From: Acidimicrobiia bacterium
GTDB taxonomy: Bacteria; Actinomycetota; Acidimicrobiia; Spongiisociales; JAENVV01
DNA length: 64,000 nt
Reading direction: 5' to 3'
Assembly (NCBI GenBank): GCA_041586155.1
Contig: JBFHAT010000005.1
Span: forward strand, 10,520 to 74,519
The notes below the pieces were generated by a model. The model worked only from the letters and a program-made list of their open reading frames with translations, had not been told where the DNA came from and searched no databases. Of this stretch, positions 1,233 through 36,335 are shown piece after piece; the first letter of the stretch is position 1; every line of letters begins with the position of its first letter. The translations under genes were made by a program, and so were the position numbers.

Positions 1233-2387
1233 ATGCGCGTCCTCCATGTGATCGACGGGTTGGGGGGATCCGGCGGCGCCGAGAACCGCATGTGCGAAGA
1301 GGTCCTCGAGCTCGCCGGCCAGACCGACCCGCCCCAGCAGATGGTCGTTCGACTGTACGAGCGCGACTTTCTACAGCCTCGCTTGGAGGAGGCCGGTGTT
1401 GCCGTCGTGGCGCTCGGGCTGGCCGGAGCGCGAGGAGCTCGCAACTGGCCCCTGGCGGCGTGGCGTCTCGTGCAGATCACTCGGAGGTTTCGCCCAGACG
1501 TGATCCATACGTCACTGTTCTCTGCGAACCTGGCCGGCCAGCTGGCCGGGATCGCCACCCGCACTCCCGTCGTGTCGACGATGACCCTGACCGGCGACAT
1601 GCGCCTGCACCGGATGCTGCAACCGGGGGCGGCGTCATGGCGAGCAGGTCTGCTTCGCTGGATCGCCGCCCGAGTGGCCAAGATGGCTCCCGTCGAATAC
1701 CGGGCCATCACCCACGACGTCAAGGACACGTCGTGCGTGGCGATGCCGTTCCCGCCGGACCGAGTGTTCGTCATCCCTCGAGGTCTCGCTCCTACGAGGG
1801 GAACGGCCCCGAGCGATCGGTCTCGCTTCGGTCTACCCGATGGCGTACCCCTGTTCGTCAACGTCGGGCGGCTCACCAAGCAGAAAGGACAGACGCTGCT
1901 CATCGAGGCATTCAGCCGGATCAGACAGGACATCCCCGATGCGATCTTGGCCATTGCCGGTGAGCGGAGCGACGCCACTCACGACGTCGAACGAGCAGTG
2001 ACGTCACATCAGTTGAACGGCGCCGTCCACCTCCTCGGGTTCCGGTCCGACCTCGACCAGCTGCTGGCATCAGCCGACATCTTCTTGTTCAGCTCTCTGG
2101 CTGAAGGTCTCGGCACGGCCGTCCTCGAAGCGGTCGTCGCCGGCCTACCCGTCGTCACCTTCGACATCCCGCCGGTGACCGAGGTGGTGGACGGTGCGCC
2201 TGGTGTGACCATCGTGCCGATGGAAGACGCCGCTGCGCTGGCTGCCGCCGCAGTGAACGCCTGGCGCACGCTGCAGGCCGGAGAGCGAACCGGCGATGGT
2301 CGAGCGTGGGTCTACGACCGCTACGAGCTCGGAGTCGTCGGGTCCCGGCTCAGACGGGAGCTGGAGCGGGTTGCCGGCTCAGCCTGA
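1233..2387 (+). CDS. Glycosyltransferase family 4 (group 1)
   Basis: MRVLHVIDGLGGSGGAE N-terminus. C-terminal GT4 signature EGLGTAVLEAVVAGLPVV. 384 aa. Confidence 0.8.
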   Translation: MRVLHVIDGLGGSGGAENRMCEEVLELAGQTDPPQQMVVRLYERDFLQPRLEEAGVAVVALGLAGARGARNWPLAAWRLVQITRRFRPDVIHTSLFSANLAGQLAGIATRTPVVSTMTLTGDMRLHRMLQPGAASWRAGLLRWIAARVAKMAPVEYRAITHDVKDTSCVAMPFPPDRVFVIPRGLAPTRGTAPSDRSRFGLPDGVPLFVNVGRLTKQKGQTLLIEAFSRIRQDIPDAILAIAGERSDATHDVERAVTSHQLNGAVHLLGFRSDLDQLLASADIFLFSSLAEGLGTAVLEAVVAGLPVVTFDIPPVTEVVDGAPGVTIVPMEDAAALAAAAVNAWRTLQAGERTGDGRAWVYDRYELGVVGSRLRRELERVAGSA

Positions 2388-3272
2388 CCCGAGCTCGAAC
2401 GACGCCGTCATCCATTCCCAGATCAAGTCTCCAAGCGCTTCCTGGGTCGGTAGCGCCGCCCGGCCGTGGACTTTGCCGTCGAGGACCTCGATCTGCATCG
2501 CTGGACCGGCTCGCTCGACCAGGGCTTCCAAGCGGCCGGGCAACGCCGCCTGGAAATCCTCCCATCCGTCCTCGGTACCGAACACGAACAAGACCGGGAC
2601 GCCTCGCTCGATCACTCCCGTCAACGCATCCAAGAACGGACGACTCACCCAGGGCGGCGTGCCGTCGCCGGGCCGGATTCGAGCCAATGCCGCCCTGGCT
2701 TTCGTTCGCGCCAATATCCGAGCGGCCCCTGCGATGCGCGCCAGCTGCTTGGGTTTCAGGAGCATCGTCGGCTCGAGCGCTCCCACTCCCCGGCTCATGA
2801 ACTCCAGTGTGGATCCCTCCGCCAGCCTGGTGGCGGTACCCTCGCCGCGATCGAAGTCGCGCACCAGAGGGGCGATCAGCACCAGGCCGGCCAGATCTTC
2901 GATGCGGTCCGCCGCCGCCAGCGCGTTCCTGGCGCCGAAACACTGACCGATGAGCACGTGTCGGCTCACACCCCGGCTTCGTAGCGAATCGACGGCCCCC
3001 ACGACGTCAGCGGCGAAATAACGGTTCGATCCCATCTCCCCGATCAAGCCTGTGCTGTCCCCGGCTCCGTGATAGTCGAATCGCAAGGTGCGGACTCCGA
3101 CGGAGGCAAGGCGGGTTTCCAGCGGGGTCCACAGCGGGCTGCGGGTCACGGCCGCCGTGTAACCCCCGCCGCGCAAGACCGTGACTCCAAGTGAACCGGG
3201 TTGGTCGGGCTCGGTGCAAGTTCCAAAAAGCGTCTCACCGGCGGCTTCGAAGAAGAGCGGATGAGTTGTCAT
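2379..3272 (-). CDS. Alpha/beta-fold hydrolase, second of an adjacent pair (resembles the exosortase-system-associated hydrolase 1/2 families)
   Basis: Start taken at MTTHPLFFEAAGETLFG, an internal Met of ORF 2379..3431, which gives a 4-bp ATGA overlap with the upstream gene. Sequence has the a/b hydrolase pattern (HG..GDS.G). Confidence 0.6.
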   Translation of the reverse strand: MTTHPLFFEAAGETLFGTCTEPDQPGSLGVTVLRGGGYTAAVTRSPLWTPLETRLASVGVRTLRFDYHGAGDSTGLIGEMGSNRYFAADVVGAVDSLRSRGVSRHVLIGQCFGARNALAAADRIEDLAGLVLIAPLVRDFDRGEGTATRLAEGSTLEFMSRGVGALEPTMLLKPKQLARIAGAARILARTKARAALARIRPGDGTPPWVSRPFLDALTGVIERGVPVLFVFGTEDGWEDFQAALPGRLEALVERAGPAMQIEVLDGKVHGRAALPTQEALGDLIWEWMTASFELGSG

Positions 3273-4147
3273 CGATCCGCCCCCAGGTTCTCCACCCAGG
3301 CAACCGTCTGGTCGATGAGCAGCCTGGTCAGCATCTTGTTCTCTTCTGTCTCGAACCGGTCGGCTTCGAACCACCACGCTTCCTCGTGACCCGTGGAGGA
3401 CGCCGTGACCTCGACACCTGCATCCTGCCACCCAGCCGCGACAAGGGCCAGATCCTCGGCCAGCTCGGAACGGCGCGACACCTGCAGCACGAGCGCTGCC
3501 TCGGAGGCGGCTTCGCTGATCAGTCGGGGAACGTCGATCGGCGCGACCGACCGATGGAGGTCACGCTCGATGAGGTAGTCGAGAACGACCAGACTGCCTT
3601 CGTTCTCGAGCATCGTGACGAGATCGGATCCCGAATGGCGCTTGTCTGCGCCGGAGGTCAGCTCCTGGACCTGCCGCACCCTGATGATGTCGGCCAGATA
3701 TCCCGCCGGATCGATGACCGGATCCCAGAGCACGAGCGGTGCCCCACCGCGCCGGACGGCTGCCCGGGCTGCCACGATGCCACCCCACCGCACCCCCATC
3801 AGGATCATGCGATCAGGACGACAACGCTCGGCGAGGGCACCGGCGGCAGCGTCGGCGTCGTCGGTCATGGACGCAACGGTCATCCCGCCGGGCACGTCGT
3901 CACTCAGACCCGTATTGCGGTATTGGAATCGCTGCACGGCCGCTCCGGCTGCGGCCAGCGCACGCGCCAAGAGCACTTCACGCCGATAGTTCTTGAAGTA
4001 CTCGGCGTAGATCGGGCTGCAGATCACCACTCCCGTCCCACTGGGCTGATCGGGCAGATACCGATGCCCGAAGAGCCCCGGACCAACTAGATCAGCTTCT
4101 TCGAGGAATCCCTCCGCCTGGCGAACAGCTCCCGCTCCAGGGCTCAT
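3269..4147 (-). CDS. Alpha/beta-fold hydrolase, first of the adjacent pair
   Basis: 292 aa with VVICSPIYAEY...GLSDD motifs of the a/b hydrolase fold. Overlaps both neighbours by 4 bp, so it reads as part of an operon. Confidence 0.6.
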   Translation of the reverse strand: MSPGAGAVRQAEGFLEEADLVGPGLFGHRYLPDQPSGTGVVICSPIYAEYFKNYRREVLLARALAAAGAAVQRFQYRNTGLSDDVPGGMTVASMTDDADAAAGALAERCRPDRMILMGVRWGGIVAARAAVRRGGAPLVLWDPVIDPAGYLADIIRVRQVQELTSGADKRHSGSDLVTMLENEGSLVVLDYLIERDLHRSVAPIDVPRLISEAASEAALVLQVSRRSELAEDLALVAAGWQDAGVEVTASSTGHEEAWWFEADRFETEENKMLTRLLIDQTVAWVENLGADR

Positions 4148-5256
4148 CCGGCCCCCTCGCCCGCCGGCGCAGCTTCACTCGCGTCGACGCCTCGCCCGCT
4201 TCCCTGTCCGGCCCGTCGGCTGCTGGCTTCTTCGCGCATCGCCAGCAACCGACCGCTGGGACCGACTGGTCGGAGCAGTGCGAAATCGACGGCATCGGTC
4301 GCACCGAGGGCGTACTTGTGGGGCTCGGACCCTCTGAGCAGATCCAGGCTGGACAACCCTTCGCTTCGCGCCCAGTCGAGGGCAGTCACGGTGAGGGCGA
4401 TACCGATGCCGTATCGGGCAAATTCGGGATTCCATCCTGTTTTGTAGCTGGCGAACGTTGTGCGGTGCCTGAACCCGAGGAGACCGGCGATCGCTTCGCC
4501 GTCCTTCTCCATCAGCAACAGCCACGGCCCGTCAGGTCCAGTCGCTCGCCGGGCGACGTCCGACAGGAAACGCAGGCGAAGCTCGTCGAACAGCCCGCCA
4601 CCTCGACCATCCCAGCGGCTGGCGTGCAGCTCTTGAAGCGAGCTGAGCCCGTCGGCGACCGCCGGGCCTGGCGAGACCCATCGTGGCTTCACGCCGAGCC
4701 CTTCGAGCTGTCGAGCTCGGCGTCTCACGTTCTCCCGCATCTTCTTCGACCAACGACCCTCGATGTCGTCGCTCAGCTGGAACGCCGGGCACCGAATCCG
4801 GTCCACCACGGTAGCTCCGGCGATCCGCAGCAATGCCGGTTCGTGCTGCTCGGCCACCGACTCGAACAGCAGCGTGCGGCCGGACCCCGTCTCGATGGCC
4901 GCTGCCACCAGCGCATGCTCGACGTCGCCGCCTGTCTCGCAAATGGGTCCGAGATGGTCGCCCGCCCCCGCGCCGGACCCGGCGAGACCCAAATAGCGAA
5001 GTGGCACGGGAACTCGCCTGTGGACTCGGCGTTGCAGCTCGGACAGCGCCAGCAGGCCAAGGAGAGTCCCATCATCGTCGCGAGCGGTGAGCACAGTCAG
5101 GGCTGCGTTGGGCTCGAGCACCTCATGCCAGGAGCGAATCCAGCTCGCCGTTTGGAAGAAGTTCGACACCCCGGCTCGGGCGAACAGACGATCCCATTCA
5201 CCCTCCAACTCGTCGAGCGCTTCATCGCCCGGAACGGCGGACACCTGAACAGTCAT
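4144..5256 (-). CDS. FemAB/CelD-like GNAT-fold acyltransferase (BioF2-like acetyltransferase domain)
   Basis: 370 aa. The family is ~350 aa with the WNPEFARYGIGIALTVTALDWARSEG region. It sits directly beside the hydrolase pair, as in PEP-CTERM accessory cassettes. Confidence 0.55.
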   Translation of the reverse strand: MTVQVSAVPGDEALDELEGEWDRLFARAGVSNFFQTASWIRSWHEVLEPNAALTVLTARDDDGTLLGLLALSELQRRVHRRVPVPLRYLGLAGSGAGAGDHLGPICETGGDVEHALVAAAIETGSGRTLLFESVAEQHEPALLRIAGATVVDRIRCPAFQLSDDIEGRWSKKMRENVRRRARQLEGLGVKPRWVSPGPAVADGLSSLQELHASRWDGRGGGLFDELRLRFLSDVARRATGPDGPWLLLMEKDGEAIAGLLGFRHRTTFASYKTGWNPEFARYGIGIALTVTALDWARSEGLSSLDLLRGSEPHKYALGATDAVDFALLRPVGPSGRLLAMREEASSRRAGQGSGRGVDASEAAPAGEGAG

Positions 5257-6377
5257 GGCCGGGCCGATTCCTCGACTTCGTACATCGTCAGCAATTGTCG
5301 GACGATGACGTCGGGCGTGAAGGCTTCGGCTTTACGTCGGCCTTCCGCCCCGCACGACATCCGTAGTTCGGCGCTCTCCGCCAGTTGCTTGATCCGGGCG
5401 GCGGCCAAGCCGGTATCACCGGGCGGAAACAGGAGACCGGCCTGGCCGTCGGTGTCCAGAAGCTGACGGATCGGCTCGAGGTCGGACGCCACGACCGGAA
5501 TCCCGTTGAGCATCGCCTCGGCCGTGATGCGGGAGAACGATTCATCGCGAGATGCCACGAGCACGATGTCGCATTGTTCATAGATGCGACGAACGTCGGA
5601 GTCAGGCCCGCGCATCACGAGGTCGACTCCTTGAATTGCATCCAGCTGCTGCCATACGGGGGTTGCGTAGTCGGAATCGAGCCTTTTCGTGAAGAGGCGC
5701 CACTGCAGATCCAGGCCGCGACAGCCTTCGATGATGTCGGGAAGCAGATCGAAGCCCTTGCGATGACGGCCGGCGCTGAGATACCCGACGACGAGGGGCC
5801 CATCACCGTCACTTCTCTCGGCGACGACATCAGCCGGATCGATCGGGTTAGGGACGATGGTCACCTCGTCCCACGTACACAGGCCATTCTCGACAGCAAC
5901 CGACGCGGCGGTGCGAGACACCGCGGCAAACCGGGGGCGCTGCAGCAACCACCGGAGAATGGGCCCGAGCCTCCGACCCCACGGTGAACCGACCGGGTCG
6001 TGCACCCATACGGTGACCGGCGCACGGGTGACCAATGCTGGGAGCACCGACAGGCTGAGCGCCCGGGTGGCGTTGGCGTGAATCGCATCGATTCTCGTGC
6101 GATGCCGAAGGGACCATCGCGCCAGTCTCAACGCCGCCCATATCCGATGCATTCGGTTGGGAAAGCGCGGCTTCCATGGCAAGTCGATCGTCTCTTCGGC
6201 CAGCCCTCGTTCCCGGACGAGCGCTCCGAATTCACCCTGCATCGGCGCCGCGAGCATCCTCACGACGCGCGGCCCGATCTCCTCGAGCAGCGTCGCCAGA
6301 CTCCGGTTCGAGCCGCCGAGTGGCGCCGGAACCGCGACGAAGAGCACCACCGGCCGTGCCGGCTGGTCGGGACTCAT
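5253..6377 (-). CDS. Glycosyltransferase family 4
   Basis: 374 aa. GT4 C-terminal domain (ESFSRITAEAMLNGIPVVASD). Overlapping start/stop with both neighbours. Confidence 0.75.
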   Translation of the reverse strand: MSPDQPARPVVLFVAVPAPLGGSNRSLATLLEEIGPRVVRMLAAPMQGEFGALVRERGLAEETIDLPWKPRFPNRMHRIWAALRLARWSLRHRTRIDAIHANATRALSLSVLPALVTRAPVTVWVHDPVGSPWGRRLGPILRWLLQRPRFAAVSRTAASVAVENGLCTWDEVTIVPNPIDPADVVAERSDGDGPLVVGYLSAGRHRKGFDLLPDIIEGCRGLDLQWRLFTKRLDSDYATPVWQQLDAIQGVDLVMRGPDSDVRRIYEQCDIVLVASRDESFSRITAEAMLNGIPVVASDLEPIRQLLDTDGQAGLLFPPGDTGLAAARIKQLAESAELRMSCGAEGRRKAEAFTPDVIVRQLLTMYEVEESARP

Positions 6378-7228
6378 GCTCGTCCCCAGAGATCAAAGCC
6401 GGGACCCACCAGCGAGCGCAGGTCTGCGAGGTCATCTGCCAATTGGTCCCAGATCCAGGCCTCGGTCGAAGGATCGATGTCGAGTGTGTCCCGCTCCAGC
6501 GGCCTGCTCAACGCCACCCGAAGACGCTGTTTGGCGAAGCGGGGCATCATGCGGCTCACTGCCGTGCCTCGAGCGGCTCTGCGCACCCGGTTGACGATCC
6601 CTGGTGCCTGGCGCTTGTCGGCGGTGCGGTTGAGTTCGCGCTCCACCGTCGCGATCGGCACGGTCGGATCGACCCCGATGAACGAGAAGATCTCATCGAG
6701 GACGGCTTCGCGCTCGTTGAGGAGCCGGTCCGACGACACCACCATGATCTGATCGCGAGGGAAGTGATCGAGGTAGAGGCGCAACTGGTAGGCGTACCTA
6801 CTGACATCGAGGTAGTCGGGACTCGCCCGCAGCGCCTCGGCGATCGGTCGTTCCTCCCTGCCCCTGTCGACGTAGTGGGCGTATTGGCTGCGGATCCGTG
6901 CCACCGGATCCCGGATGACATACACGAGCTGGATCGCCGGATACTCCTTGGCGATGCGAGCGGGCACGTCGGGAATCTTGGGTGCCTGCGAGTAACTGGT
7001 AGAGGCTTCGCCAATCGCCGTCTCGTCCCCGGCGTCGGCGAACAGCGACAGATACCAGTCGAGCCCCCGCGCCATGTTGACCGAGAAATAATGCGGTTCC
7101 TTGCGCTGGGGCATGAAGACGTCCGGGTGGGACCGCAGATACGCCGAGAGGCTCGTCGTGCCCGATTTGGCGGCACCGATCACCATGAATGTCGGATGTC
7201 TCGTCACGCGTTCACCCCCCTGGACCAT
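6374..7228 (-). CDS. Sulfotransferase (PAPS-dependent family)
   Basis: 5'-PSB-like motif MVIGAAKSGTTSL close to the N-terminus, followed by HPDVFMPQRKEPHYF. 284 aa. The start could instead be the internal Met at MVIGAAK. Confidence 0.75.
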   Translation of the reverse strand: MVQGGERVTRHPTFMVIGAAKSGTTSLSAYLRSHPDVFMPQRKEPHYFSVNMARGLDWYLSLFADAGDETAIGEASTSYSQAPKIPDVPARIAKEYPAIQLVYVIRDPVARIRSQYAHYVDRGREERPIAEALRASPDYLDVSRYAYQLRLYLDHFPRDQIMVVSSDRLLNEREAVLDEIFSFIGVDPTVPIATVERELNRTADKRQAPGIVNRVRRAARGTAVSRMMPRFAKQRLRVALSRPLERDTLDIDPSTEAWIWDQLADDLADLRSLVGPGFDLWGRA

Positions 7229-7254
7229 CGGATGTTAGCCAGGGAGGGTCCCGG

Positions 7255-8253: not shown

Positions 8254-8275
8254 GACTGTACAAAGGGAGGGATCG

Positions 8276-9340: not shown

Positions 9341-10155
9341 ATGGTCATCCCGTCGTGGCCGGCACGCGTCGACTCCGTCAGGTCGGGTCGGCCTTCTTCC
9401 GCCTCGGGCTGCAGCAGACCCTTGCGTACCCGTTGTCATTCGTCCAGAGCCAGCTCAGCTCCATCGTGCCGGCGATCATCTTCTTCTTCGTGGCGAAGCT
9501 GGTCGCCCAGGAGAACTACTACACGTCGGTGATCATCGGACTGGTCGCGGCGGGGGTCCTCGACGCCGGTGTTCGAGGCTTCACGCGGGAGATCGACGTG
9601 GCAATCAACCGAGGGTGGTTGGAGATGTTCCTCGTCGAACCGGTGCGCTGGCGTTTCCTCCCATTTGGGATGGCCCTGTGGCCCATCACCCTCGGCCTGG
9701 CCAGCGTCTCGATGATCGCCCTCACGGCCGCCGCCTTGGGTGCACAGTTCCGGCTCGAGAACCTCCCACTCGCCCTCGTGTTCCTTCTGTTGGCGCTCGC
9801 CGCCGGACTGGTGATCGGAACACTGTCCGCCTCCCTCAAGGTGCTGGCAAAATCCGGCGATCCCGTCCTCTTCGTGTACGGGCTGCTCACCCAGATCTTC
9901 GCCGGCGTGTACTTCGATCTCGACGTGATCCCTGCGCCACTGCGCGTCATCTCGTGGGCGTTGCCCCACACGTACGCCATCGCCGCGCTGCGACGCCTGC
10001 TGCTGCCCGAAGGCAGCCAACTCCCGTCGATCTCGGTGGCGACATCCACCTGGGTACTGGTGGCGTTCTGCGTAGTCGGATATCCGGTGGCACTGTGGGT
10101 CTACGGACGGGCACTGGAATACGGCCGCCGTCTGGGGGTGCTCAGTGGCTATTGA
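9337..10155 (+). CDS. ABC-2 type transporter permease (Wzm-like)
   Basis: 272 aa with six predicted TM segments. ATGA overlap with the ATPase gene. Confidence 0.75.
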   Translation: MNGHPVVAGTRRLRQVGSAFFRLGLQQTLAYPLSFVQSQLSSIVPAIIFFFVAKLVAQENYYTSVIIGLVAAGVLDAGVRGFTREIDVAINRGWLEMFLVEPVRWRFLPFGMALWPITLGLASVSMIALTAAALGAQFRLENLPLALVFLLLALAAGLVIGTLSASLKVLAKSGDPVLFVYGLLTQIFAGVYFDLDVIPAPLRVISWALPHTYAIAALRRLLLPEGSQLPSISVATSTWVLVAFCVVGYPVALWVYGRALEYGRRLGVLSGY

Positions 10156-11131
10156 ACCCGGAGAACCCCAGCCGGTGTTTCCGATATTCACGGGCGCCGG
10201 TCGTTCGGGCACCACCTTGTATCGCTCGATCTTCGACTCGCACCCTGACCTCTTCGTCGCACACGAAGCGCATTTTCTCGGTCCCATGGCGGCACGGGCC
10301 GGGCGATACGAGATGAACGGAGCATTCGACCGACAGCGCTTCGTCGACGACCTCTACGACGACCACAAATTCGTGGTGCTGGGCGTCGACCGCCGAGAGG
10401 TGGCCGAAGCCTTCGACGTCGCCGGTCCTGCCGACTTCGCGACCGCCGCCCGGACGGTGTTCGGCGTGCTGGCGCAGCGGGCGGGCAAGCCGAGATATGG
10501 CGACAAATCTCCCAACTATGCGAGCCGCATCACCGAGATCGCGTCCGTCCTGCCCGAGACGAAGTTCGTTCACATCGTGCGGGACGGCCGCAACGTCGCC
10601 CTTTCGCTGCTCGACCGGGGGATCGGACCTGGCACCCTCATCGACGCCGCGAGCCATTGGTCTTCCGTGGTTCGCAAGGTCGGCAATGCGAGCCGTGAGC
10701 TGGGGCCGGACCGGATCCTCCAATCGAGGTACGAGGATCTCATCGCCGAGCCAGAGTCGGAGGTGAGAAGGATCTGCGACTTCTTGCATCTGCCGTTCGA
10801 TCCCCGCATGCTGGCGTATCGGGAGCGAGTGGACGAGATCCTCGAACCGCTGAAAGCGGTCGAATGGGACTGGGCGCATGAGAACCTCTCCGCTCCACTC
10901 GATCCGACGTTACGTGACTGGCGATCGACGATGGAATCGGACGACGTGGCGGCGTTCGAATCGGTTGCGGCCGAGGAGCTGGAGCGCCACGGGTACACCA
11001 TCGCTTCGGATCCGGCAGACCGGCCGGCTGTGCGAGCCGCTGCCAAGGGTCGATGGCTCGGTAAGCGGGTGGCCTTCCGGATACGGCAACCACTCCGGAA
11101 ACGACGCCACCGCCGCCGTCTCGAGCCGTGA
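10145..11131 (+). CDS. Sulfotransferase
   Basis: IFTGAGRSGTTLYRSIFDSHPDLFVAHE 5'-PSB motif. GTG start overlaps the permease stop. Confidence 0.75.
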   Translation: MAIEPGEPQPVFPIFTGAGRSGTTLYRSIFDSHPDLFVAHEAHFLGPMAARAGRYEMNGAFDRQRFVDDLYDDHKFVVLGVDRREVAEAFDVAGPADFATAARTVFGVLAQRAGKPRYGDKSPNYASRITEIASVLPETKFVHIVRDGRNVALSLLDRGIGPGTLIDAASHWSSVVRKVGNASRELGPDRILQSRYEDLIAEPESEVRRICDFLHLPFDPRMLAYRERVDEILEPLKAVEWDWAHENLSAPLDPTLRDWRSTMESDDVAAFESVAAEELERHGYTIASDPADRPAVRAAAKGRWLGKRVAFRIRQPLRKRRHRRRLEP

Positions 11132-12033
11132 GCTCTCTGGGTCCTCGGCCCAGCTTCTTCATCGTTGGTGCACCAAAATGCGCCACGACGTCGATGTACG
11201 AGTACCTGCGCGCCCACCCCGATGTCTTCATGCCCGACAGACGGGAGATGAACTACTTCGGCTCTGATCTGCCGCTGCCGAATCGGCTGCCAGATCTCGA
11301 AACCTATCTGTCGTTCTTCACCGAAGCGCAACCCGGCCAGGTCGTAGGGGAAAAGTCCGTGAATTACCTGTTCTCGCGGTCGGCTGCGCACGAGCTCTTG
11401 GAGTTCGATCCCGAGGCGAAAGCGATCATCATGCTGCGCAACCCGGCGGACGTCGTGTTCTCGTTGCACCGCCAGTTCTTGTTCTCGGCCAACGAGGACA
11501 TCATCGACTTGGCCTCGGCCCTCGATGCCGAGGATGAACGCATTCGAGGGCTCCGGATCCCGGCAGGCGCCCACAACCCGGCGATGCTGGCGTACACGAG
11601 AGTTGCCTCGTTTGCGCCGCAGGTGCGGCGGTACCTGGATCAATTCGGTCCGGATCGGATCGCCGTGGTGATCTTCGACGACTTCGCTGCAGACCCCGAG
11701 CGTGAATATCGGTCGGTGCTCCGGTTCATCGGCGTCGATCCCGGATACGAACCTGACTTCGAGGTCCACAATCCGGCCAAGCGGGTACCGAATGTGGCGG
11801 TGCGTAAGTTCATGAAGACCCATCGCGGCCTCAGTGCCGTGATCAACCGCATCGTCCCTGAAGACCTGCTCGACCGTGCCCGTTCGAGTTTGGCCCGACT
11901 CCAACCGCAACCCGAGCGCCAGCTCGATCCGGATCTCCGTCGACGGCTCGTCGAGGTGTTCGACGACGACATCAGCCAGCTCGAAGCGCTGATCGACCGC
12001 GACCTGTCGGGCTGGCGGCTCGTACCGGCTTAG
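11128..12033 (+). CDS. Sulfotransferase
   Basis: FFIVGAPKCATTSMYEYLRAHPDVFMP motif. GTGA overlap with the preceding gene. Confidence 0.75.
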   Translation: MSSLGPRPSFFIVGAPKCATTSMYEYLRAHPDVFMPDRREMNYFGSDLPLPNRLPDLETYLSFFTEAQPGQVVGEKSVNYLFSRSAAHELLEFDPEAKAIIMLRNPADVVFSLHRQFLFSANEDIIDLASALDAEDERIRGLRIPAGAHNPAMLAYTRVASFAPQVRRYLDQFGPDRIAVVIFDDFAADPEREYRSVLRFIGVDPGYEPDFEVHNPAKRVPNVAVRKFMKTHRGLSAVINRIVPEDLLDRARSSLARLQPQPERQLDPDLRRRLVEVFDDDISQLEALIDRDLSGWRLVPA

Positions 12034-13046
12034 ACGACCTCGAGCTCGCGCAGGATCCGAAACACCTCCGCGCCGATCGGAGCGGTGCGAGAGATCGGGA
12101 TGTGGGCGAAGTCGACCTGTGCCTGCACGCCTTCGAGCTTCAACAGACGATCGATGTCGACCACATGGAAATCGAGCCGAGCGGAGAGTTCGCTGAGCGC
12201 CAGATTGAACTCGCGCCGGCGCAGCGGATGGGCCGACCCCAGCAGCTGGTAGTTGTGATGCTGACTGCCCGGATCGACCACCAGGCTGTTGTAGATGATG
12301 ACGTGTGCGCCGACTTTCTCACGAATCAGCCTGATCACCTCTTCCAGATTCTTCTGAAAGTCGGCGACATCGATCCGGCCGATGCTCTCGAAGTTCTTCT
12401 TGAACCAGCGGGCGACCTCCGGGTCAGGTAGCACCTTGTCCGTCAGGTTGTTGAGCCAGAAGCCGCCCGGATCGATCAGGTATCCCTCGCTTCGGTGGCG
12501 GTAGACGACGCGCACGAGATCCGAGCCGATGGAGAGGATGACGACCGTCTTGGGAAACCGGCCAAAGCGGGGATGGTCATCGATGACGAAGTCTTTCTCG
12601 GTGAACAGGCGAGGTCCGAAATAGTGCTCTTCGAGCCGGAGCCGGCGCCTCACCTCCGCGGTGTCGGCGGTGGCTGCGTCGCCGAGCGTCTGGAGCATCT
12701 GATCGGTCCGGTGCGCCCCCAACTCGCCACCTGTGCCTTGTTTGAAGATGCCGACCGTGCCCTCGAGTCCGGGACCGATCAGCGGCGCCGCAGTGAATGT
12801 GGACGGCAAGTCGCAGCCGCCACGCAGCAGCACCCCCACCCGCCGCGCATCGGGATCGTTCTTGGAGCGGATCACGGCGAAATTGGGACCGGTGTACTGC
12901 ACGAAGTCGGGGCCGGTCTTCTTCCGGACGCGATCGACCACCGCCTTGCGGTACGTGGCCTTGAAACGCCGCTCGAATGCCGTGTCGGTACCGGCGAGCT
13001 TGCGCCAACCTTTGACGCCTTTACGTAGCAGCTTCTGCATCGTCAC
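12030..13046 (-). CDS. Hypothetical protein, possible SGNH/GDSL-like hydrolase
   Basis: VVILSIGSDLVRV is block-I-like and DFAHIPISR is DxxH block-V-like. Assignment is tentative. Confidence 0.35.
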   Translation of the reverse strand: MTMQKLLRKGVKGWRKLAGTDTAFERRFKATYRKAVVDRVRKKTGPDFVQYTGPNFAVIRSKNDPDARRVGVLLRGGCDLPSTFTAAPLIGPGLEGTVGIFKQGTGGELGAHRTDQMLQTLGDAATADTAEVRRRLRLEEHYFGPRLFTEKDFVIDDHPRFGRFPKTVVILSIGSDLVRVVYRHRSEGYLIDPGGFWLNNLTDKVLPDPEVARWFKKNFESIGRIDVADFQKNLEEVIRLIREKVGAHVIIYNSLVVDPGSQHHNYQLLGSAHPLRRREFNLALSELSARLDFHVVDIDRLLKLEGVQAQVDFAHIPISRTAPIGAEVFRILRELEVV

Positions 13047-13456
13047 AGCTCCTCGGCGGTACGGTCCATCACCTCGGCCACGACCCTCATCTTCGAGGTG
13101 GAGTCAGGACTCCCGCCGTTGTCGCCGAACTCGGGCGCGACGTGAGCCAGCACGTCTCCAACCCGGAACGGGCTGCCCTCACCCAGCTCGATCGAGCGCA
13201 TCGTGCCTGGTTCTGACGCAATGATACGGAACCGCAGCCGCAGCTTGACGGTCCGCGTTTGTTCCGACTTCGCGCGACGCCGCCTGAGCAGACGGGAGGC
13301 GTCTTTGGTTCGATCTACGGCCTCCGATTCGCGCGCCTCGATCTCGCAAAGAACGTCACCGAAGGCGATCGCGCCGCCCTCGGCGACGTGCCATTTCGTG
13401 ACCGAGCCGCCGATCACGCCCATGCCGAGCTCGGGTACTTCGACCGACAGGATCAC
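13043..13456 (-). CDS. Small lipoyl/biotinyl-attachment-like domain protein lacking the modifiable lysine
   Basis: VPELGMGVIGGSVTKWHVAEGGAIAFGDVLCEIEARESEAV resembles the E2 lipoyl domain, but the position of the lipoyl-Lys is Arg. 137 aa. Confidence 0.4.
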   Translation of the reverse strand: MILSVEVPELGMGVIGGSVTKWHVAEGGAIAFGDVLCEIEARESEAVDRTKDASRLLRRRRAKSEQTRTVKLRLRFRIIASEPGTMRSIELGEGSPFRVGDVLAHVAPEFGDNGGSPDSTSKMRVVAEVMDRTAEEL

Positions 13457-14130
13457 TCGGCGCCGTCCCGACTGCCCGACTGGACGAGCAAAGGTCGGCG
13501 TTCGAAGAATCCGTAGTCCTCGAGAATGCGCAGTGCCTCTGCGGCGAGTGCCGCGTTGGCAGCTGCGGAGTACTCGAGAGGACCCGCGACATGGTCGGCG
13601 GCCCCCATTTCCGCCAGGATCCGATCCGCATCGATGATCGAGACGCCCTCTCTGATCGACAGTTGGAGCAACGCCAGGTCGACCTGCTGTGCTCGCCGGG
13701 TGAAGGGGTCGGGCTGGTCGTGGTAGTTCGAGATCGTCACGGTGGGGTCGATAGTCGAAGCATTCAGGAAGACGACGTAGATCTCGTCATCCTTGAACCT
13801 CTTCACGACTCTCTCCATCGCCCCCAGGAAACCGTCGGGATGAGATGCACCGACCAGCACGTCGGGATGCGGGCCTAGGAACACGAGATCGGGCCGGTCG
13901 GCGATGGCGCGACTCCGACCGGACTCCAGCTCAGACAACAGGTCGGGATAGCCGCCCCGCGCCTCGATCGTGAGGTCGACCTGCACGCCGTGCTTGCGCC
14001 GGACGAGGTCGGCGAGCCCTTCTTGGAGGACGCTTCCTCCATCGGCTCGCGACACCAGCGCGTCGACGAGTTCCTTGTTCCCCTTGACGACGACCGACAG
14101 GCGGTCCTGGCCGCCGAGACGAGGTGACAT
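13453..14130 (-). CDS. Hypothetical protein
   Basis: 225-aa ORF in an operon-like overlapping arrangement between the ACP and the lipoyl-like gene. No confident family assignment. Confidence 0.4.
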   Translation of the reverse strand: MSPRLGGQDRLSVVVKGNKELVDALVSRADGGSVLQEGLADLVRRKHGVQVDLTIEARGGYPDLLSELESGRSRAIADRPDLVFLGPHPDVLVGASHPDGFLGAMERVVKRFKDDEIYVVFLNASTIDPTVTISNYHDQPDPFTRRAQQVDLALLQLSIREGVSIIDADRILAEMGAADHVAGPLEYSAAANAALAAEALRILEDYGFFERRPLLVQSGSRDGAE

Positions 14131-14135
14131 CGATC

Positions 14136-14395
14136 CTACGCCGCCGGCGAGCGCCTGCTCTCGATCAGCGTCGTGATCGCAGAGATGTCCTTGAAGTTGT
14201 CGAGCGTGACGTCTTCAGGCTCGATCTCGATGCCGAATTCCTCCTTGATGTGCCCGAGGAGGAGGAAGATGCCAAGCGAGTCGATGATCTCACGTTCGAG
14301 GAGGTCGGTGTCGTCTTCCAGGGCCTGATCAGGCCGGCCTTCCATGAATTCTTGGCGGATGAACGCTTTGACCGCTGCAGCAGTGTTCTCCACGA
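14136..14395 (-). CDS. Acyl carrier protein (phosphopantetheine-binding)
   Basis: LLEREIIDSLGIFLLLGHIKEEFGIEIEPEDV contains the DSL phosphopantetheine attachment motif. Start taken at GTG 14395, ~86 aa. The upstream part of ORF 14136..14621 is probably not translated. Confidence 0.6.
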
Positions 14396-14738
14396 ATAAC
14401 CCCTTTCGCGCGCCATGGTGTCTTGGGCAAGCCCGGCCGAAGCAGGCTTGCGCCTCCCAGCGCCTCGCCTGCCGGAGCGTGATGGTCATCCACTCCCTTG
14501 CCACCATCAATCCACAGCGGTGCGGCTGAACTCTATCGGCGGCCCGCGCGGCTGTCCACCCGCCGGTCACCCCCACCTCGACAGCAAAGGAGCACGTCGG
14601 TAAGGTGCTCAGAACCCACAACTTCCCAGACGCCGCCTGATCCCAGCAGGCCCGCGAAGCCCTTCATCCACTTCGGCGCATTGCCGATAGGGTTCGAAGA
14701 CGACCCGATGCTGGTCGAGGCGCCAGGAGTCTCCCAGA

Positions 14739-17182: not shown

Positions 17183-17345
17183 GAACAGTGGCCGTCCACG
17201 TTGGTTGATGACTCACTCTCCGGTCGTGCCGAGCTTCGATGACACCCCGCCGACGGCACGGGCGTCGATCCGGGGGGAGTTGCCCAGAGCGACACACGTT
17301 AGATGGGTCGGCCGGCTACCGGATCCGTGGTGTTCTCCGAACTTT

Positions 17346-17374
17346 CTTCACAAAACGCCCCAATGTGCGTACTA
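17346..17374 (+). promoter_or_regulatory. Candidate sigma-70-type promoter for the Wzz-like gene (TTCACA-17 bp-TACTAT)
   Basis: AT-richer hexamers with 17-bp spacing, ~50 bp upstream of ATG 17425 within a 240-bp intergenic region. Confidence 0.3.
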
Positions 17375-17424
17375 TTGTCGGCGGGCGCGGCGGAGGCACC
17401 GCGAGTAAAGGGTGGGAAGGAACC

Positions 17425-20516: not shown

Positions 20517-20581
20517 CCAAGCGCGTTGCAAAATGACGCTCGATCGACAATCCTGGAGGCCGCGCCGGTCGGGAGTGGCGC

Positions 20582-31978: not shown

Positions 31979-32017
31979 TTCAGTTCTTCCTCCTGGTTCT
32001 GATTCGTCGAAGGCCAC

Positions 32018-33256: not shown

Positions 33257-33284
33257 TGGTGCATCTCCCGGGGGTGGACTCTTC

Positions 33285-36184: not shown

Positions 36185-36335
36185 GACGCTCCTAGGAGGG
36201 TGGCGTGTGCAGATCGCGGCGAACCGTAGCGGCCCGAGCACTCACCGCAAGCAGATACCATATCGGCGCCAGCCGGCGGAGGACCTCGGAAACGAGGAAA
36301 ATCGATCGCCTGGGTGATGCGGCCGGAGGGTGCGC

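Follow-up and report, generated by a model that had tools for sequence, protein, structure and literature searches.

A putative surface-glycan locus of an Acidimicrobiia bacterium with a stand-alone carrier protein and distant relatives of the exosortase-associated hydrolase pair

Gene content and layout of the locus

The window, a stretch of 64,000 nucleotides from an uncultured Acidimicrobiia bacterium, contains the genes listed in Table 1. GC3 values of 0.71-0.81 and 4-bp start/stop overlaps indicated that the gene types named in an earlier note are all present as real coding sequence, and independent Logan contigs gave the same gene calls. The note had grouped these genes as a single operon, and this arrangement was not borne out. 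One minus-strand operon runs from a polysaccharide deacetylase (PDA) through a sulfotransferase (ST), a GT4 enzyme, a GNAT and hyd2 to hyd1 (8163 to 2379). The ABC exporter and two further sulfotransferases are divergent from it on the opposite strand and occupy the middle of the interval, while the carrier protein (ACP), which had been counted with the hydrolase operon, belongs to a second, convergent minus-strand operon (14393 to 12030) together with p225, lip137 and p338, three genes that the note did not mention. The ACP and the hydrolase pair are separated by 9,989 bp, the widest gap among all loci compared. Divergence of the PDA-to-hyd1 operon from the ATPase and ABC-2 permease (8276-10155, plus strand) was confirmed. 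The counts of three sulfotransferases and two GT4 enzymes also stood, but only one GT4 lies inside the interval, the other (1233-2387) abutting it, and only one sulfotransferase (6374-7228) is on the minus strand with the supposed accessory operon, the other two being plus-strand genes beside the exporter.

Table 1. Genes of the locus, with positions in the window
Feature	Position	Strand	Evidence
Secreted protein of 747 aa, C-terminal part with three SLH repeats	3..1205	+	Pfam SLH 151.7 bits
GT4a glycosyltransferase, convergent on the hydrolase operon	1233..2387	+	Pfam Glycos_transf_1 105.9 bits
hyd1-like alpha/beta-fold protein	2379..3272	-	TIGR03100 64.7 bits; PF12146 42.3 bits
hyd2-like alpha/beta-fold protein	3269..4147	-	TIGR03101 56.1 bits
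FemAB/CelD-type GNAT	4144..5256	-	PF13480 93.5 bits; 4-bp overlaps with GT4b and hyd2
GT4b glycosyltransferase	5253..6377	-	Pfam Glycos_transf_1, Glyco_trans_1_4, Glyco_transf_4
Sulfotransferase ST1, PAPS-type	6374..7228	-	PF13469 51.3 bits; PF00685 49.3 bits
Polysaccharide deacetylase (PDA), NodB/CE4 fold, first gene of the operon	7255..8163	-	PF01522 76 bits
ABC transporter ATPase, DrrA-like, C-terminal extension	8276..9340	+	PF00005 111.5 bits; TIGR01188 drrA 190.9 bits
ABC-2 type permease, Wzm-like, six predicted TM segments	9337..10155	+	PF01061 32.9 bits
Sulfotransferase ST2	10145..11131	+	PF13469 114.8 bits
Sulfotransferase ST3	11128..12033	+	PF13469 61.7 bits; PF00685 48.4 bits
p338, cytoplasmic SGNH-fold protein	12030..13046	-	Invariant G-G-C-D at block I; invariant D312-x-x-H315
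lip137, lipoyl/biotinyl-like barrel-sandwich protein	13043..13456	-	PF00364 32.5 bits, confined to the N-terminal half
p225, SGNH-fold paralog of p338	13453..14130	-	Conserved nucleophile at block I absent
Stand-alone carrier protein (ACP/PCP)	14136..14393	-	PF00550 27.1 bits; start possibly up to 14417
Secreted protein, signal peptide, ~190-aa domain, SLH-like repeats	14739..15944	+	SLH 43.2 bits; divergent from ACP
p414, secreted, C-terminal TM anchor	15938..17182	-	Homologs in L004 (36%) and L040 (52%)
Wzz-like chain-length/co-polymerase protein	17239..19323	+	Weak TIGR01007, 24.8 bits; two TM segments
LegC/PseC-type sugar aminotransferase	19377..20516	+	PF01041 314 bits; TIGR04181 360.7 bits (cut-off 420)
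TauE/SafE-family anion (sulfite/sulfonate) exporter-like membrane protein	20537..21652	+	PF01925 59.1 bits; eight hydrophobic segments

On contig L001, the whole gene of the 747-aa protein encodes a CEMIP-type beta-helix (CEMIP_beta-hel, 55.3 bits) followed by the SLH repeats (148.7 bits), and the PDA, called there as 302 aa, had the N-terminal region of PgaB as its top NCBIfam match (70.8 bits). The top NCBIfam match of GT4a was TIGR03088 (104 bits, under the cut-off of 409), and the translation of ST1 contains the 5'-PSB motif GAAKSGTTS. Three related loci (L040-L042) have in common a core of a Wzz-like protein, ST, PDA, GT4, the SGNH/lipoyl-like trio (p338, p225 and lip137), ST, GT4, Wzm/Wzt and a beta-helix/SLH protein. 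Orthologs of GT4b in these loci are 45-49% identical, that of ST3 in L040 is 66% identical, and those of the Wzz-like protein, whose C-terminus is degenerate and BY-kinase-like, were flagged as Wzz in L040 and L041. Searches of Pfam, NCBIfam and the PDB with p414 returned no matches. The LegC/PseC-type aminotransferase would, from its family, yield an amino sugar, and the TauE/SafE-family protein marks the edge of the locus. None of the modifying enzymes has a signal peptide, which is consistent with cytoplasmic decoration ahead of ABC export.

The hydrolase-like pair and its carrier protein

The best NCBIfam matches of hyd1 and hyd2 were TIGR03100 and TIGR03101, respectively, at scores well under the curated cut-offs of 168 and 203 bits, and the same best-match pattern was found in all six of the pairs or fusions tested. 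The kinship with an exosortase-type hydrolase pair that the note had proposed is thus a distant one, but sequence comparison supports it as genuine, the counterpart being the exosortase-A 'hydrolase 2 / hydrolase 1' pair. The nucleophile elbow of hyd1 holds Cys111 (G-Q-C-F-G-A-R), and the corresponding position of hyd2 is Arg120 (G-V-R-W-G); in alignments with solved hydrolases, both fall at the nucleophilic Ser. Among homologs of hyd1, the Cys and Arg115 were each kept in 36 of 37 and His269 in 86%, and Arg occupied the hyd2 position in 38 of 39. The C-terminal His is absent from hyd2, which has a conserved Arg cluster, and an Azospirillum fusion of the two proteins shows the identical R/C signature. 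It is therefore probable that hyd1 is the catalytic subunit, and hyd2 is probably its non-catalytic partner. The editing role that had been suggested for the hydrolases is unlikely, because Cys in one and Arg in the other replace the nucleophilic Ser. The Cys of hyd1 is nevertheless also compatible with hydrolysis, since dienelactone hydrolase has a Cys nucleophile and is hydrolytic.

The remaining enzymes of the proposed five-part cassette, the GNAT and the PDA, fit generic families. They matched PF13480 and PF01522, and the ACP matched the PP-binding family; TIGR03019 and TIGR03006 were not matched by the GNAT and the PDA, respectively, and none of the four proteins checked reached the TIGR model named for it. 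The GNAT had no NCBIfam match at all and no relative in the PDB, and no homolog of it was found in the related loci or in a metagenome scan, so that it is unique to the present locus among those examined and the five parts do not form a conserved cassette.

Linkage across genomes held for the pair and the ACP, the GNAT being outside the shared set. In 31 other loci, mostly from Actinomycetota, hyd2 was followed directly by hyd1 wherever the locus was sufficiently long, with 3-4 pairs per locus at most, and fusions are known in both orders, also in EPS loci of Azospirillum and Shinella. An ACP homolog lay near the pair in 21 of the 31 loci, with a median gap of 637 bp; several of the 10 loci that lacked one are short contigs. 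The phosphopantetheine attachment site of the ACP reads D-S-L, its Ser being kept in 24 of 24 homologs, and its nearest solved relatives are the prolyl/pyrrolyl carriers Bmp1-ACP (E 4.5e-10), PltL and PigG. Amino-acid-adenylating enzymes above the TIGR01733 A-domain cut-off were present in 10 of the 31 pair loci; they scored 335-338 bits against TIGR03098 (exosortase-A-associated ligase), and their best stand-alone solved match was PltF. An 'amino acid--[ACP] ligase' also adjoins the Azospirillum fusion. These observations fit the acyl- or aminoacyl-carrier role previously proposed for the ACP. An ACP-loading enzyme was not found in the locus of the window, where the nearest AMP-binding gene (34307-36241) lies beside a Liv-type ABC transporter.

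It could be argued that this is an ordinary polysaccharide locus, in which the alpha/beta-fold proteins act either as simple esterases or as editing hydrolases of the type-II thioesterase kind and the ACP is an unrelated neighbour. The sub-threshold scores against all exosortase-A models, the generic GNAT and PDA, and the location of the ACP 10 kb away in another operon agree with that reading. However, hyd2 is ruled out as a conventional hydrolase by the Arg at its nucleophile position and by its lack of a C-terminal His, and neither the strict conservation of the pair, with fusions in several lineages, nor the dedicated ACP and adenylating enzymes would be expected of generic esterases. We consider this explanation unlikely.

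The SGNH/lipoyl-like trio and the sulfotransferases

The trio is Acidimicrobiia-specific. In p338, Cys78 of block I and a D-x-x-H motif are invariant, and structural neighbours of the SGNH folds of p338 and p225 include the acyltransferases SsfX3, PatB and OatA. In an alignment of seven homologs of lip137, the modifiable Lys is replaced by Glu and Cys37 is invariant. Only 5 nt separate the ACP gene from p225 in their shared operon, and in L040 the ortholog closest to the ACP (58% identity) is located within duplicated trios, the 21 kb there containing no hydrolase pair. Thus, the ACP of the window genome may serve the trio instead of the pair, the glycan then being esterified in a Dlt-like or SsfX3-like manner, and the pair and GNAT would use another donor, such as acyl-CoA or aminoacyl-tRNA, the latter being the classical donor of FemAB-type GNATs. 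Against an assignment of this kind, the trios of L041 and L042 have no ACP in 20 kb, and 21 loci without the trio have a member of the same ACP family beside hydrolase pairs. In our estimate it is distinctly unlikely. Service to the trio and service to the pair are not mutually exclusive.

The sulfotransferases might point to a different role for the pair. CurM, with its ACP-ST-TE arrangement, is a precedent for sulfation of an ACP-bound hydroxyacyl group, and in a CurM/OLS-like route the pair would release a sulfated acid or terminal alkene, with the hyd2 Arg recognising the sulfate. Such a pathway would end in a lipid or small molecule instead of a decorated glycan. Consistent with this, hyd2 has its conserved Arg cluster, 8 of the 31 pair loci encode a sulfotransferase, and in five loci (L019, L022, L023, L024 and L027) a sulfotransferase directly adjoins the ACP, divergent from the pairs. 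A sulfotransferase-hyd2 fusion (P0162), the N-terminal half of which is 35% identical to ST2, is also in keeping with it, but represents a single metagenomic gene call. However, the window contains no KS/PKS or other source of beta-hydroxyacyl-ACP, L040-L042 have sulfotransferases where the pair is absent, and glycosyltransferases, the deacetylase, the Wzz-like protein and the ABC-2 exporter dominate the locus. We regard such a route as very unlikely, and the exported polymer itself is probably sulfated.

Relation to exosortase systems and a proposed mechanism

In the 64-kb window and 6 kb further upstream, no exosortase, exosortase-like multi-TM ORF or PEP-CTERM tail was found, in agreement with the note, and PF09721 had no strong match among 41 membrane ORFs of related loci. 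To our knowledge, exosortase-type relatives of the pair and carrier protein have so far been known only from Gram-negative "exosortase" systems. The best NCBIfam matches to the XrtA-associated models TIGR03100, TIGR03101, TIGR03088 and TIGR03018 would suit a canonical exosortase/PEP-CTERM system with its exosortase and substrates encoded beyond the window. Such a system is highly improbable, given XrtA-model scores 3-10 times under the cut-offs, the results of these searches, and a host that its homologs indicate to be a monoderm actinobacterium.

The earlier note had treated the lack of an exosortase as an anomaly. The pair-plus-ACP module proved to be widespread: at E<=1e-30 it was represented by at least 1,558 clusters of 50% identity, and many of its glycan loci, with genes for Wzy_C, WecA-type glycosyltransferases, flippases, Bac_transf or ABC-2 proteins, show no exosortase. 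The module of the window is distantly related to the exosortase-A set 'hydrolase 2 / hydrolase 1 / ligase / ACP', and the best explanation of its sequence relationships is an autonomous glycan-decoration module outside protein sorting. On our best reading, with the chemistry inferred, it is a module for acyl or aminoacyl transfer that depends on a carrier protein and is able to join glycan loci with or without an exosortase.

We propose, with a probability of roughly 0.5, that an ABC-transporter-dependent surface-glycan core is combined here with two carrier-protein-linked acyl-transfer devices. The GT4 enzymes would build the polymer at the cytoplasmic face, with an amino sugar supplied by the LegC-like aminotransferase; the CE4 deacetylase would trim it, the several PAPS-type sulfotransferases would sulfate it, and the ABC-2 pump would export it. 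In the first device, a two-subunit hyd2/hyd1 enzyme with hyd1 (Cys-His) as catalytic subunit, the Arg-rich conserved surface of hyd2 would be the docking site for the acidic carrier protein or for an anionic substrate. The PCP-like ACP would bear an acyl or aminoacyl thioester, from which hyd1 would receive the acyl group as a Cys thioester and hand it, without hydrolysis, to a candidate acceptor on the nascent glycan, either a hydroxyl or an amine. The PF13480 GNAT, encoded directly upstream, might add or extend an N-acyl or aminoacyl group on an amino or de-N-acetylated sugar. The second device would consist of p338 with its block I Cys, the nucleophile-less p225 and the Lys-less lip137.

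The flanking SLH-domain proteins would probably have the exported product as their wall polymer. Searches of the PDB and Pfam with the ~190-aa N-terminal domain of the protein at 14739..15944 returned no matches. In alignments, this domain contains the SGNH-like motifs G-C-S, Y-G-G-G and D-G-C-H, and it is 53-61% identical to products of genes that adjoin the ACP and hydrolase pair in three of the related loci (L028, L036 and L038).

Organization of the locus and its predicted glycan

Raw ORF lists were noisy because the GC content of the window is 63-67%. The gene map was based on third-position GC, on start and stop overlaps, and on genes called independently in three metagenome contigs with the same DNA, all of which were mutually consistent. 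It places three transcription units, not one, in the interval 2379-14621, and the first housekeeping genes at 22402. Unit A has 4-bp overlaps at the junctions from ST1 through to hyd1. The comparison contig L001, which carries the window DNA, adds 6 kb upstream with a second deacetylase, a multi-TM protein without a Pfam match and another sulfotransferase, the fourth after the three in the window. An earlier note on this DNA had described the interval as one operon of an exosortase-accessory-like ensemble. The gene types that it named were found again, whereas the single operon gave way to three units, and the memberships in exosortase-associated families fell away, the TIGR models scoring below cut-off or not matching.

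Transcription units of the interval 2379-14621 and flanking features (window positions)
Feature	Position	Strand	Unit or content
Unit A	8163 to 2379	minus	deacetylase, ST1, GT4b, GNAT, hyd2, hyd1, in order
CE4 deacetylase	7255-8163	-	unit A
ST1 (sulfotransferase)	6374-7228	-	unit A
GT4b (glycosyltransferase)	5253-6377	-	unit A
PF13480 GNAT	4144-5256	-	unit A
hyd2 (alpha/beta fold)	3269-4147	-	unit A
hyd1 (alpha/beta fold)	2379-3272	-	unit A
Unit B	8276-12033	plus, divergent from unit A	ABC ATPase, ABC-2 permease, ST2, ST3
ABC ATPase	8276-9340	+	unit B
ABC-2 permease	9337-10155	+	unit B
ST2 (sulfotransferase)	10145-11131	+	unit B
ST3 (sulfotransferase)	11128-12033	+	unit B
Unit C	14393 to 12030	minus, convergent on unit B	ACP, p225, lip137, p338
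Carrier protein (ACP)	14136-14393	-	unit C
p225 (SGNH fold)	13453-14130	-	unit C
lip137 (lipoyl-like)	13043-13456	-	unit C
p338 (SGNH fold)	12030-13046	-	unit C
GT4a (glycosyltransferase)	1233-2387		flank
747-aa beta-helix/SLH protein	3-1205	+	flank; last 400 aa in window
Secreted SLH-anchored protein	14739-15944	+	flank
p414, secreted, anchored, no recognised family	15938-17182		flank
Wzz-like protein	17239-19323		flank
LegC-type sugar aminotransferase	19377-20516		flank
TauE-like exporter	20537-21652	+	flank

The ABC-2 permease (PF01061) and ATPase (PF00005) genes overlap by 4 bp within a locus rich in glycosyltransferases and form a predicted exporter, an arrangement that is kept in the related glycan loci L041 and L042. 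All three predicted PAPS-dependent sulfotransferases score above the PF00685/PF13469 thresholds, and their translations contain the 5'-PSB motifs GAAKSGTTS, GAGRSGTTL and GAPKCATTS. The deacetylase belongs to PF01522; PgaB was the best of its nine NCBIfam matches (70.8 bits), and TIGR03006 was absent from the nine. The GNAT matches PF13480 at 93.5 bits (gathering threshold, 22) over profile positions 1-142 of 143. It matched no NCBIfam family at E<=0.01, and TIGR03019 was therefore unmatched as well. No homolog of the GNAT was found in the metagenome scan and no relative in the PDB, and a phmmer search of six-frame ORFs from all fetched loci returned only the window's own contigs.

In the three glycan-locus relatives, L040 to L042, the locus type comprises a Wzz-like protein, sulfotransferase, deacetylase, GT4 enzyme, the trio p225-lip137-p338, a further sulfotransferase and GT4 enzyme, Wzm/Wzt and a beta-helix/SLH protein. 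The interval is shown, at the level of predicted gene functions, to be a conserved Acidimicrobiia locus for an ABC-exported glycan. The GNAT, hyd2 and hyd1 genes downstream of GT4b and the ACP gene upstream of the trio are additional acquisitions in this genome.

SLH proteins flank the sulfotransferase-rich locus both here (3-1205 and 14739-15944; L001, 12943-15186) and in its relatives (L040, 20102-21017; L042, 16097-17629), and a CEMIP-type beta-helix is present in one of them. The locus showed no gene for a pyruvyl-transferase (CsaB). Because of this combination, a sulfated polymer might be the SLH ligand in these actinobacteria.

The flanking SLH-anchored protein has a secreted N-terminal domain of ~190 aa (14739-15380, +) with invariant G-C-S, Y-G-G-G and D-G-C-H-A-N motifs, which resemble SGNH blocks I, II and V. 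Counterparts lie beside the ACP and the hyd2/hyd1 pair in three other loci (L028, 14845-15609; L036, 7535-8284; L038, 7544-8293). The domain is 53-61% identical across loci, and the hydrolases of the same loci are only 26-38% identical. Neither this domain nor p414 had a Pfam or PDB match, and BLASTP detected no relationship between the two. A multi-TM family with the motif W-P-S-S-I-G-K-E-S and no Pfam family (L001, 17203-17919, upstream of the window; L011, 6540-7910) occurs in five of the loci with a hydrolase pair and may represent an enzyme of Wzy/ligase-like or GT-C-like type. The TauE/SafE-type gene at the locus edge resembles sulfite/sulfonate exporters, and a link to the handling of sulfur compounds is possible.

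The hydrolase pair and the exosortase-A families

The best NCBIfam match of hyd1 was TIGR03100 (64.7 bits, E 8e-18), covering only the N-terminal half of the profile, and that of hyd2 was TIGR03101 (56.1 bits, E 4e-15, profile positions 18-246). The whole-protein cut-offs of these models are 168.45 and 202.75 bits, respectively. Membership in TIGR03100 and TIGR03101, as in TIGR03019 and TIGR03006, was accordingly rejected on score. Both proteins match the alpha/beta fold family PF12146 (hyd1, 42.3 bits; hyd2, 25.7 bits), and their genes overlap by 4 bp, forming an adjacent pair as in TIGR03100/TIGR03101.

A word-indexed search returned no more than 24 hyd2 relatives. When 1.84 billion representatives were searched in full with a HMMER profile, at least 1,558 clusters (50% identity) passed E<=1e-30 and 8,869 passed E<=1e-10; the best 150 profile matches were all close relatives. 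Scanning one genome per species yielded 31 related loci, mostly in Actinomycetota or Acidimicrobiia MAGs, with one Dehalococcoidia MAG, one Gemmatimonadota MAG and four cultured actinomycetes (Actinophytocola glycyrrhizae, Micromonospora sp. NPDC047074, Mycobacterium sp. 94-17 and Streptomyces sp. URMC 123). Wherever a locus was long enough to judge, hyd2 was followed directly by hyd1 or fused to it, and some loci carried three or four such pairs. Single-polypeptide forms have the order hyd2-hyd1, with one in reverse order. Azospirillum sp. B510, on a plasmid, and Shinella zoogloeoides ATCC 19623, in an EPS locus, encode fused forms of 590 aa; their N-terminal domains match TIGR03101 and their C-terminal domains TIGR03100, both below threshold, and the pairs of L007, L019 and L036 have the same best-match pattern. 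Because this pattern repeats in pairs and fusions, the predicted kinship with the exosortase-A hydrolase 2/hydrolase 1 pair is real but distant. On this evidence, the pair proteins belong to a broader putative superfamily, with the curated exosortase-A families as one of its branches.

Membrane proteins of the related pair loci include Wzy_C, WecA-type glycosyltransferases, flippases, Bac_transf and ABC-2 permeases, and by predicted gene content the pair/ACP module resides in glycan loci. In three loci of cultured actinomycetes (L033, L035 and L039) the surroundings of the pair include a B12-binding radical SAM protein, two ACAD-like proteins, two adenylating enzymes and an ACP, a context closer to natural-product biosynthesis than to a glycan locus. 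The hyd1 match is in two pieces in L032, L033 and L037, where frameshifts are possible. One metagenomic protein of 625 aa, P0162, joins a sulfotransferase to a hyd2-like domain, its sulfotransferase half being 35% identical to ST2 (E 3e-45); this is the only such case, and a gene-call artefact is possible.

The nucleophile elbows of the two proteins depart from the Ser/Asp/His triad with Ser in a G-x-S-x-G elbow, hyd1 carrying Cys and hyd2 Arg in place of Ser. Among 37 hyd1 homologs the elbow reads G-x-C-[FY]-G-A-R (G-Q-C-F-G in the window protein); the Cys and the following Arg are each present in 36, a C-terminal His in 86%, and the Cys aligned with the catalytic Ser of solved hydrolases. 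The hyd2 elbow is G-T-R-x-G, with Arg in 38 of 39 homologs (G-V-R-W-G in the window), and profile-to-PDB alignment placed this Arg on the Ser of solved enzymes. No C-terminal His was conserved among the hyd2 homologs aligned; a basic motif, N-Y-R-R-E-V-L-L-A-R, was. The Azospirillum fusion has Arg and Cys elbows as in the window pair, and the Shinella fusion has Ser and Cys. Such a signature probably marks a catalytic subunit, forming a thioester intermediate, together with a partner that is not catalytic and probably docks a ligand. It is not what two editing hydrolases, the role suggested for them earlier, would show. A rival explanation, that the proteins are generic esterases encoded near an unrelated ACP, appears rather unlikely in view of the active-site substitutions and the linkage of the genes across genomes.

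The XrtA/EpsH type 1 exosortase-A sub-cassette consists of hydrolase 2 (TIGR03101), hydrolase 1 (TIGR03100), an acyl-CoA-type ligase (TIGR03098), a PLP decarboxylase (TIGR03099), an ACP, a FemAB-like protein (TIGR03019) and a deacetylase (TIGR03006), and its TIGR families are themselves of model type 'hypoth_equivalog'. The present locus shares with it two adjacent, mutually distant alpha/beta-fold genes with TIGR03101 and TIGR03100 as best models, a dedicated carrier protein, an EPS locus with a PF13480 GNAT, CE4 deacetylase, GT4 enzymes and Wzz-like protein and, in related loci, an adenylating enzyme scoring on TIGR03098. In contrast to the sub-cassette, scores are far below the cut-offs, TIGR03019 and TIGR03006 are unmatched, the window has no ligase or decarboxylase, the ACP is in another operon, and the host is a monoderm that has neither exosortase nor PEP-CTERM proteins here.

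The absence of an exosortase, which had been noticed from the sequence, extends over the 64-kb window and the 6-kb L001 extension with its membrane gene. As to EpsH/XrtA (PF09721), the multi-TM ORFs of the window were only Wzm, TauE, UPF0182, LivH/M, SdhC and a 130-aa ORF; the last, with three TM segments, was the only multi-pass ORF without a family, and a 285-aa candidate proved to be SdhC. Among ORFs of 80 aa or more in all six frames, none had a [VIPA]PEP motif within its 45 C-terminal residues, nor was an exosortase among the membrane-protein families reported for the related pair loci. A canonical exosortase system was rejected, there being no exosortase-like membrane ORF and no PEP-CTERM tail in the DNA covered, and it is highly improbable that one is completed by an exosortase encoded outside the window. 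Since every defining feature that was tested gave a negative result, the locus falls outside the exosortase-A system.

Functionally, the locus plausibly resembles that system's accessory half. Moreover, the exosortase-accessory hydrolase, ACP and ligase genes look like one branch of a much larger, predicted exosortase-independent module for glycan decoration that depends on a carrier protein, so the lack of an exosortase, previously treated as an anomaly, is to be expected. Public annotation names the pair family 'alpha/beta hydrolase', or 'exosortase A system-associated hydrolase 1/2' in its Gram-negative branch, and we found no functional description of the family. Craig et al., in 2011, reportedly linked N-acyl amino acid synthases to exosortase. 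Our literature search on exosortase-A hydrolases 1 and 2 found nothing relevant, and the hydrolases and ACP are not discussed by Haft 2006 (PMC1569441).

The carrier protein and its neighbours

The window ACP scores 27.1 bits on PF00550 (threshold, 20.8), and its D-S-L attachment Ser is conserved in 24/24 family members. ORF clustering placed a homolog in 21 of the 31 non-window loci, at a median gap of 637 bp to the nearest hydrolase gene; of the 31 loci, some also contain an adenylating enzyme (10 loci), an ACAD-like flavoprotein (6), a sulfotransferase (8) or a deacetylase (8). In the window, the ACP and the pair are in separate operons 9,989 bp apart, the largest gap among all loci. A weak sigma-70-like site (9/12 matches) lies upstream of the ACP gene at 14530-14558 (-); the scan gave 3 such sites in 20 kb against 1.6 expected, which is not significant.

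The nearest solved relatives of the ACP are the Bmp1 ACP domain (E 4.5e-10), PltL (E 6e-8) and PigG (E 7e-5), type II carriers of thiotemplated pyrrole pathways. Among these solved relatives, the identity of entry 6CXT is confirmed in PMC8857579. In L007 and L028 the adenylating enzymes score above the cut-off of TIGR01733, a model for amino-acid adenylation, and reach 335-338 bits on TIGR03098 (cut-off, 592). Their best stand-alone solved match is PltF, a proline-PCP ligase. An AMP-binding gene overlaps the start of hyd2 in L004, and an annotated 'amino acid--[acyl-carrier-protein] ligase' lies beside the ACP in the Azospirillum locus.

The window locus contains no ACP-loading enzyme, and it has neither a TIGR03098 ligase nor a TIGR03099 decarboxylase; a proline A-domain and a prolyl-PCP dehydrogenase are both absent from the window, while genes for ACAD-like proteins and PltF-like A-domains occur in relatives. 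As a loader, the AMP-binding gene at 34307-36241 is unlikely because it is 20 kb away and beside a Liv-type ABC transporter. An AT-skew outlier (+0.255, with |0.1| or less elsewhere) at 32001-34000 coincides with the two minus-strand genes for Liv-type permeases and probably reflects the codon or amino-acid composition of membrane proteins.

Among relatives of the module (L036 and L038, 2203-6563; L015 and L030), some are accompanied by a chorismate pyruvate-lyase, a FAAL and another AMP-binding enzyme, a set that points to p-hydroxybenzoate-type loading, and others by DAHP-synthase-like genes and a Trp-halogenase-like FAD enzyme. Because the neighbouring enzymes differ between related loci, the group predicted to be borne by the ACP probably differs between loci or lineages.

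The physical neighbour of the ACP in this genome is the SGNH trio, not the hydrolase pair. The order p225-lip137-p338 recurs in L040 to L042, sometimes duplicated. The paralogy of p225 and p338 extends over ~105 C-terminal residues, and both proteins are predicted to have SGNH/GDSL folds (pLDDT 88.7 and 81.5); structural neighbours of the models include the acyltransferases SsfX3, PatB and OatA, of which SsfX3 is an SGNH-fold sugar O-acyltransferase. The p338 family has 228 members, 43-72% identical, found only in Acidimicrobiia and other Actinomycetota MAGs. At block I, as positioned by the strand/helix boundary of the predicted model, p338 has an invariant G-G-C-D where GDSL enzymes carry G-D-S, and an invariant D312-x-x-H315 is kept. 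No residue is conserved at the nucleophile position among the aligned p225 homologs. Neither protein is therefore supported as an ordinary GDSL esterase, since the block I Ser is missing.

lip137 matches the N-terminal half of PF00364 only (32.5 bits). A role as lipoylated or biotinylated carrier was rejected because the modifiable Lys is replaced by Glu in 7/7 homologs. lip137 and its homologs in L040 to L042 have an invariant Cys three residues upstream of the Lys position and a basic insert (RLLRRRRAK...), and L041 and L042 have a second, stand-alone lip137-like copy behind a sulfotransferase.

In L040, the closest relative, an ACP 58% identical to that of the window is embedded among trios, and no hydrolase pair was found in 21 kb; the trios of L041 and L042 lack an accompanying ACP. 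As the ACP lies near pairs in some loci and among trios in L040, its family is independently linked to two different candidate transferases. The arrangement in L040 is compatible with the ACP serving the SGNH trio while the pair uses another donor, which we consider unlikely.

A proposed acyl-transfer route and related systems

The gene-level findings are solid and partly unexpected: a Cys/Arg alpha/beta pair, a Cys-bearing SGNH protein, a Lys-less lipoyl-like protein and a sulfotransferase-rich, SLH-flanked Acidimicrobiia locus. From these we infer the following chemistry as the most probable. The ACP would present an acyl or aminoacyl thioester; Cys111 of hyd1 would accept the acyl group, with hyd2 docking, and would then transfer it to the nascent glycan. 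The GNAT would N-acylate or aminoacylate an amino sugar, and p338 may run a parallel or alternative transfer. These acyl-transfer steps would all precede export; outside the cell, the SLH-anchored protein downstream of the ACP gene could remodel ester groups.

In its general form, our tentative reading, to which we give a probability of about one in four, is that hyd2/hyd1 is an unrecognised, widespread two-subunit or fused acyltransferase, consisting of a Cys enzyme and an Arg pseudo-enzyme, that would pass acyl or aminoacyl groups from a dedicated type II carrier to nascent surface polysaccharides in monoderms and diderms. The Acidimicrobiia polymer would be a heavily sulfated wall glycan replacing pyruvylated SCWP as the SLH ligand. 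If true, this would give the exosortase-A-associated hydrolase 1 and 2 families a function in glycan decoration, not sorting, and separate the pair genes conceptually from protein sorting. A family of at least 1,558 clusters would gain a testable function, carrier-protein-dependent surface-glycan acylation, for which the Cys in the alpha/beta elbow, the Arg in the partner elbow and the Cys in SGNH block I are biochemical handles. Acidimicrobiia are an abundant, almost uncultured soil and marine lineage, and the locus points to sulfated, possibly acylated, wall polysaccharides in them; our search of the literature on their envelope chemistry and on sulfotransferase polysaccharides found nothing relevant.

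Several known systems resemble the proposed two-subunit acyltransferase in part. CouN7/CloN7 of aminocoumarin pathways is an alpha/beta-fold acyltransferase that moves a pyrrolyl-2-carboxyl group from the carrier proteins CouN1/CouN5 to a sugar hydroxyl. The resemblance lies in an alpha/beta-fold enzyme beside a PltL/PigG-like type II PCP, in the proposed passage of an acyl group from a thioester to a sugar and, in related loci, in a halogenase-like FAD enzyme, a PltF-like A-domain and an ACAD-like dehydrogenase. CouN7 acts alone with a Ser nucleophile on a small-molecule glycoside, whereas the present system has a Cys enzyme with an Arg pseudo-enzyme partner and would act on a polymer. PhaC, which works with PhaE or PhaR, is an alpha/beta-fold acyltransferase whose G-x-C-x-G 'lipase box' Cys forms an acyl-enzyme from a thioester; it thus has in common with the pair the elbow Cys, a thioester donor and a heteromer with a non-catalytic partner. 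However, the two are not detectably related in sequence, nor are their partner proteins related, and PhaC uses acyl-CoA to make a polyester.

Dlt D-alanylation employs the DltA ligase, the DltC carrier, the MBOAT DltB and the SGNH-like DltD. The locus similarly combines a small carrier protein with SGNH-fold proteins in a context of wall-glycopolymer modification, and adenylating enzymes of related loci score 254-280 bits on DltA models. Unlike in Dlt, the window lacks an MBOAT and a ligase, p225 and p338 are cytoplasmic without a membrane anchor, and decoration would precede export instead of occurring outside the membrane; DltC is a marginal match to the window ACP (17.9 bits; E 0.3 against the PDB).

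In CurM/olefin synthase, an ACP-sulfotransferase-thioesterase tridomain includes a thioesterase with a Ser-His-Asp triad. A PAPS-type sulfotransferase is likewise co-located, and in P0162 fused, with an alpha/beta-fold protein and an ACP. Chemistry of this kind, giving a sulfated or olefinic lipid, would accommodate the sulfotransferase-hyd2 fusion and the adjacency of sulfotransferase and ACP in L019-type loci, but the proteins here are separate, there is no PKS and the context is a glycan locus, which makes it quite improbable.

The proposed sulfated wall glycan has its own parallels. Wzm/Wzt or TagGH-type pathways also have an ABC-2 permease and ATPase beside glycosyltransferases and a Wzz-like protein, but the ATPase here is DrrA-like, without a recognised Wzt carbohydrate-binding domain. 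Sulfated-glycan systems (rhizobial NodH/NoeE, LpsS and KpsS; cyanobacterial sulfated EPS) use similar cytoplasmic PAPS-type sulfotransferases with a 5'-PSB motif. The present locus differs from these in its Acidimicrobiia lineage and in having three sulfotransferases in the interval and the fourth on L001. It differs from known ABC-dependent and sulfated-glycan systems in that a pyruvyl-transferase is absent and SLH-domain proteins are associated with it, and it suggests a possible non-pyruvylated ligand for SLH domains.
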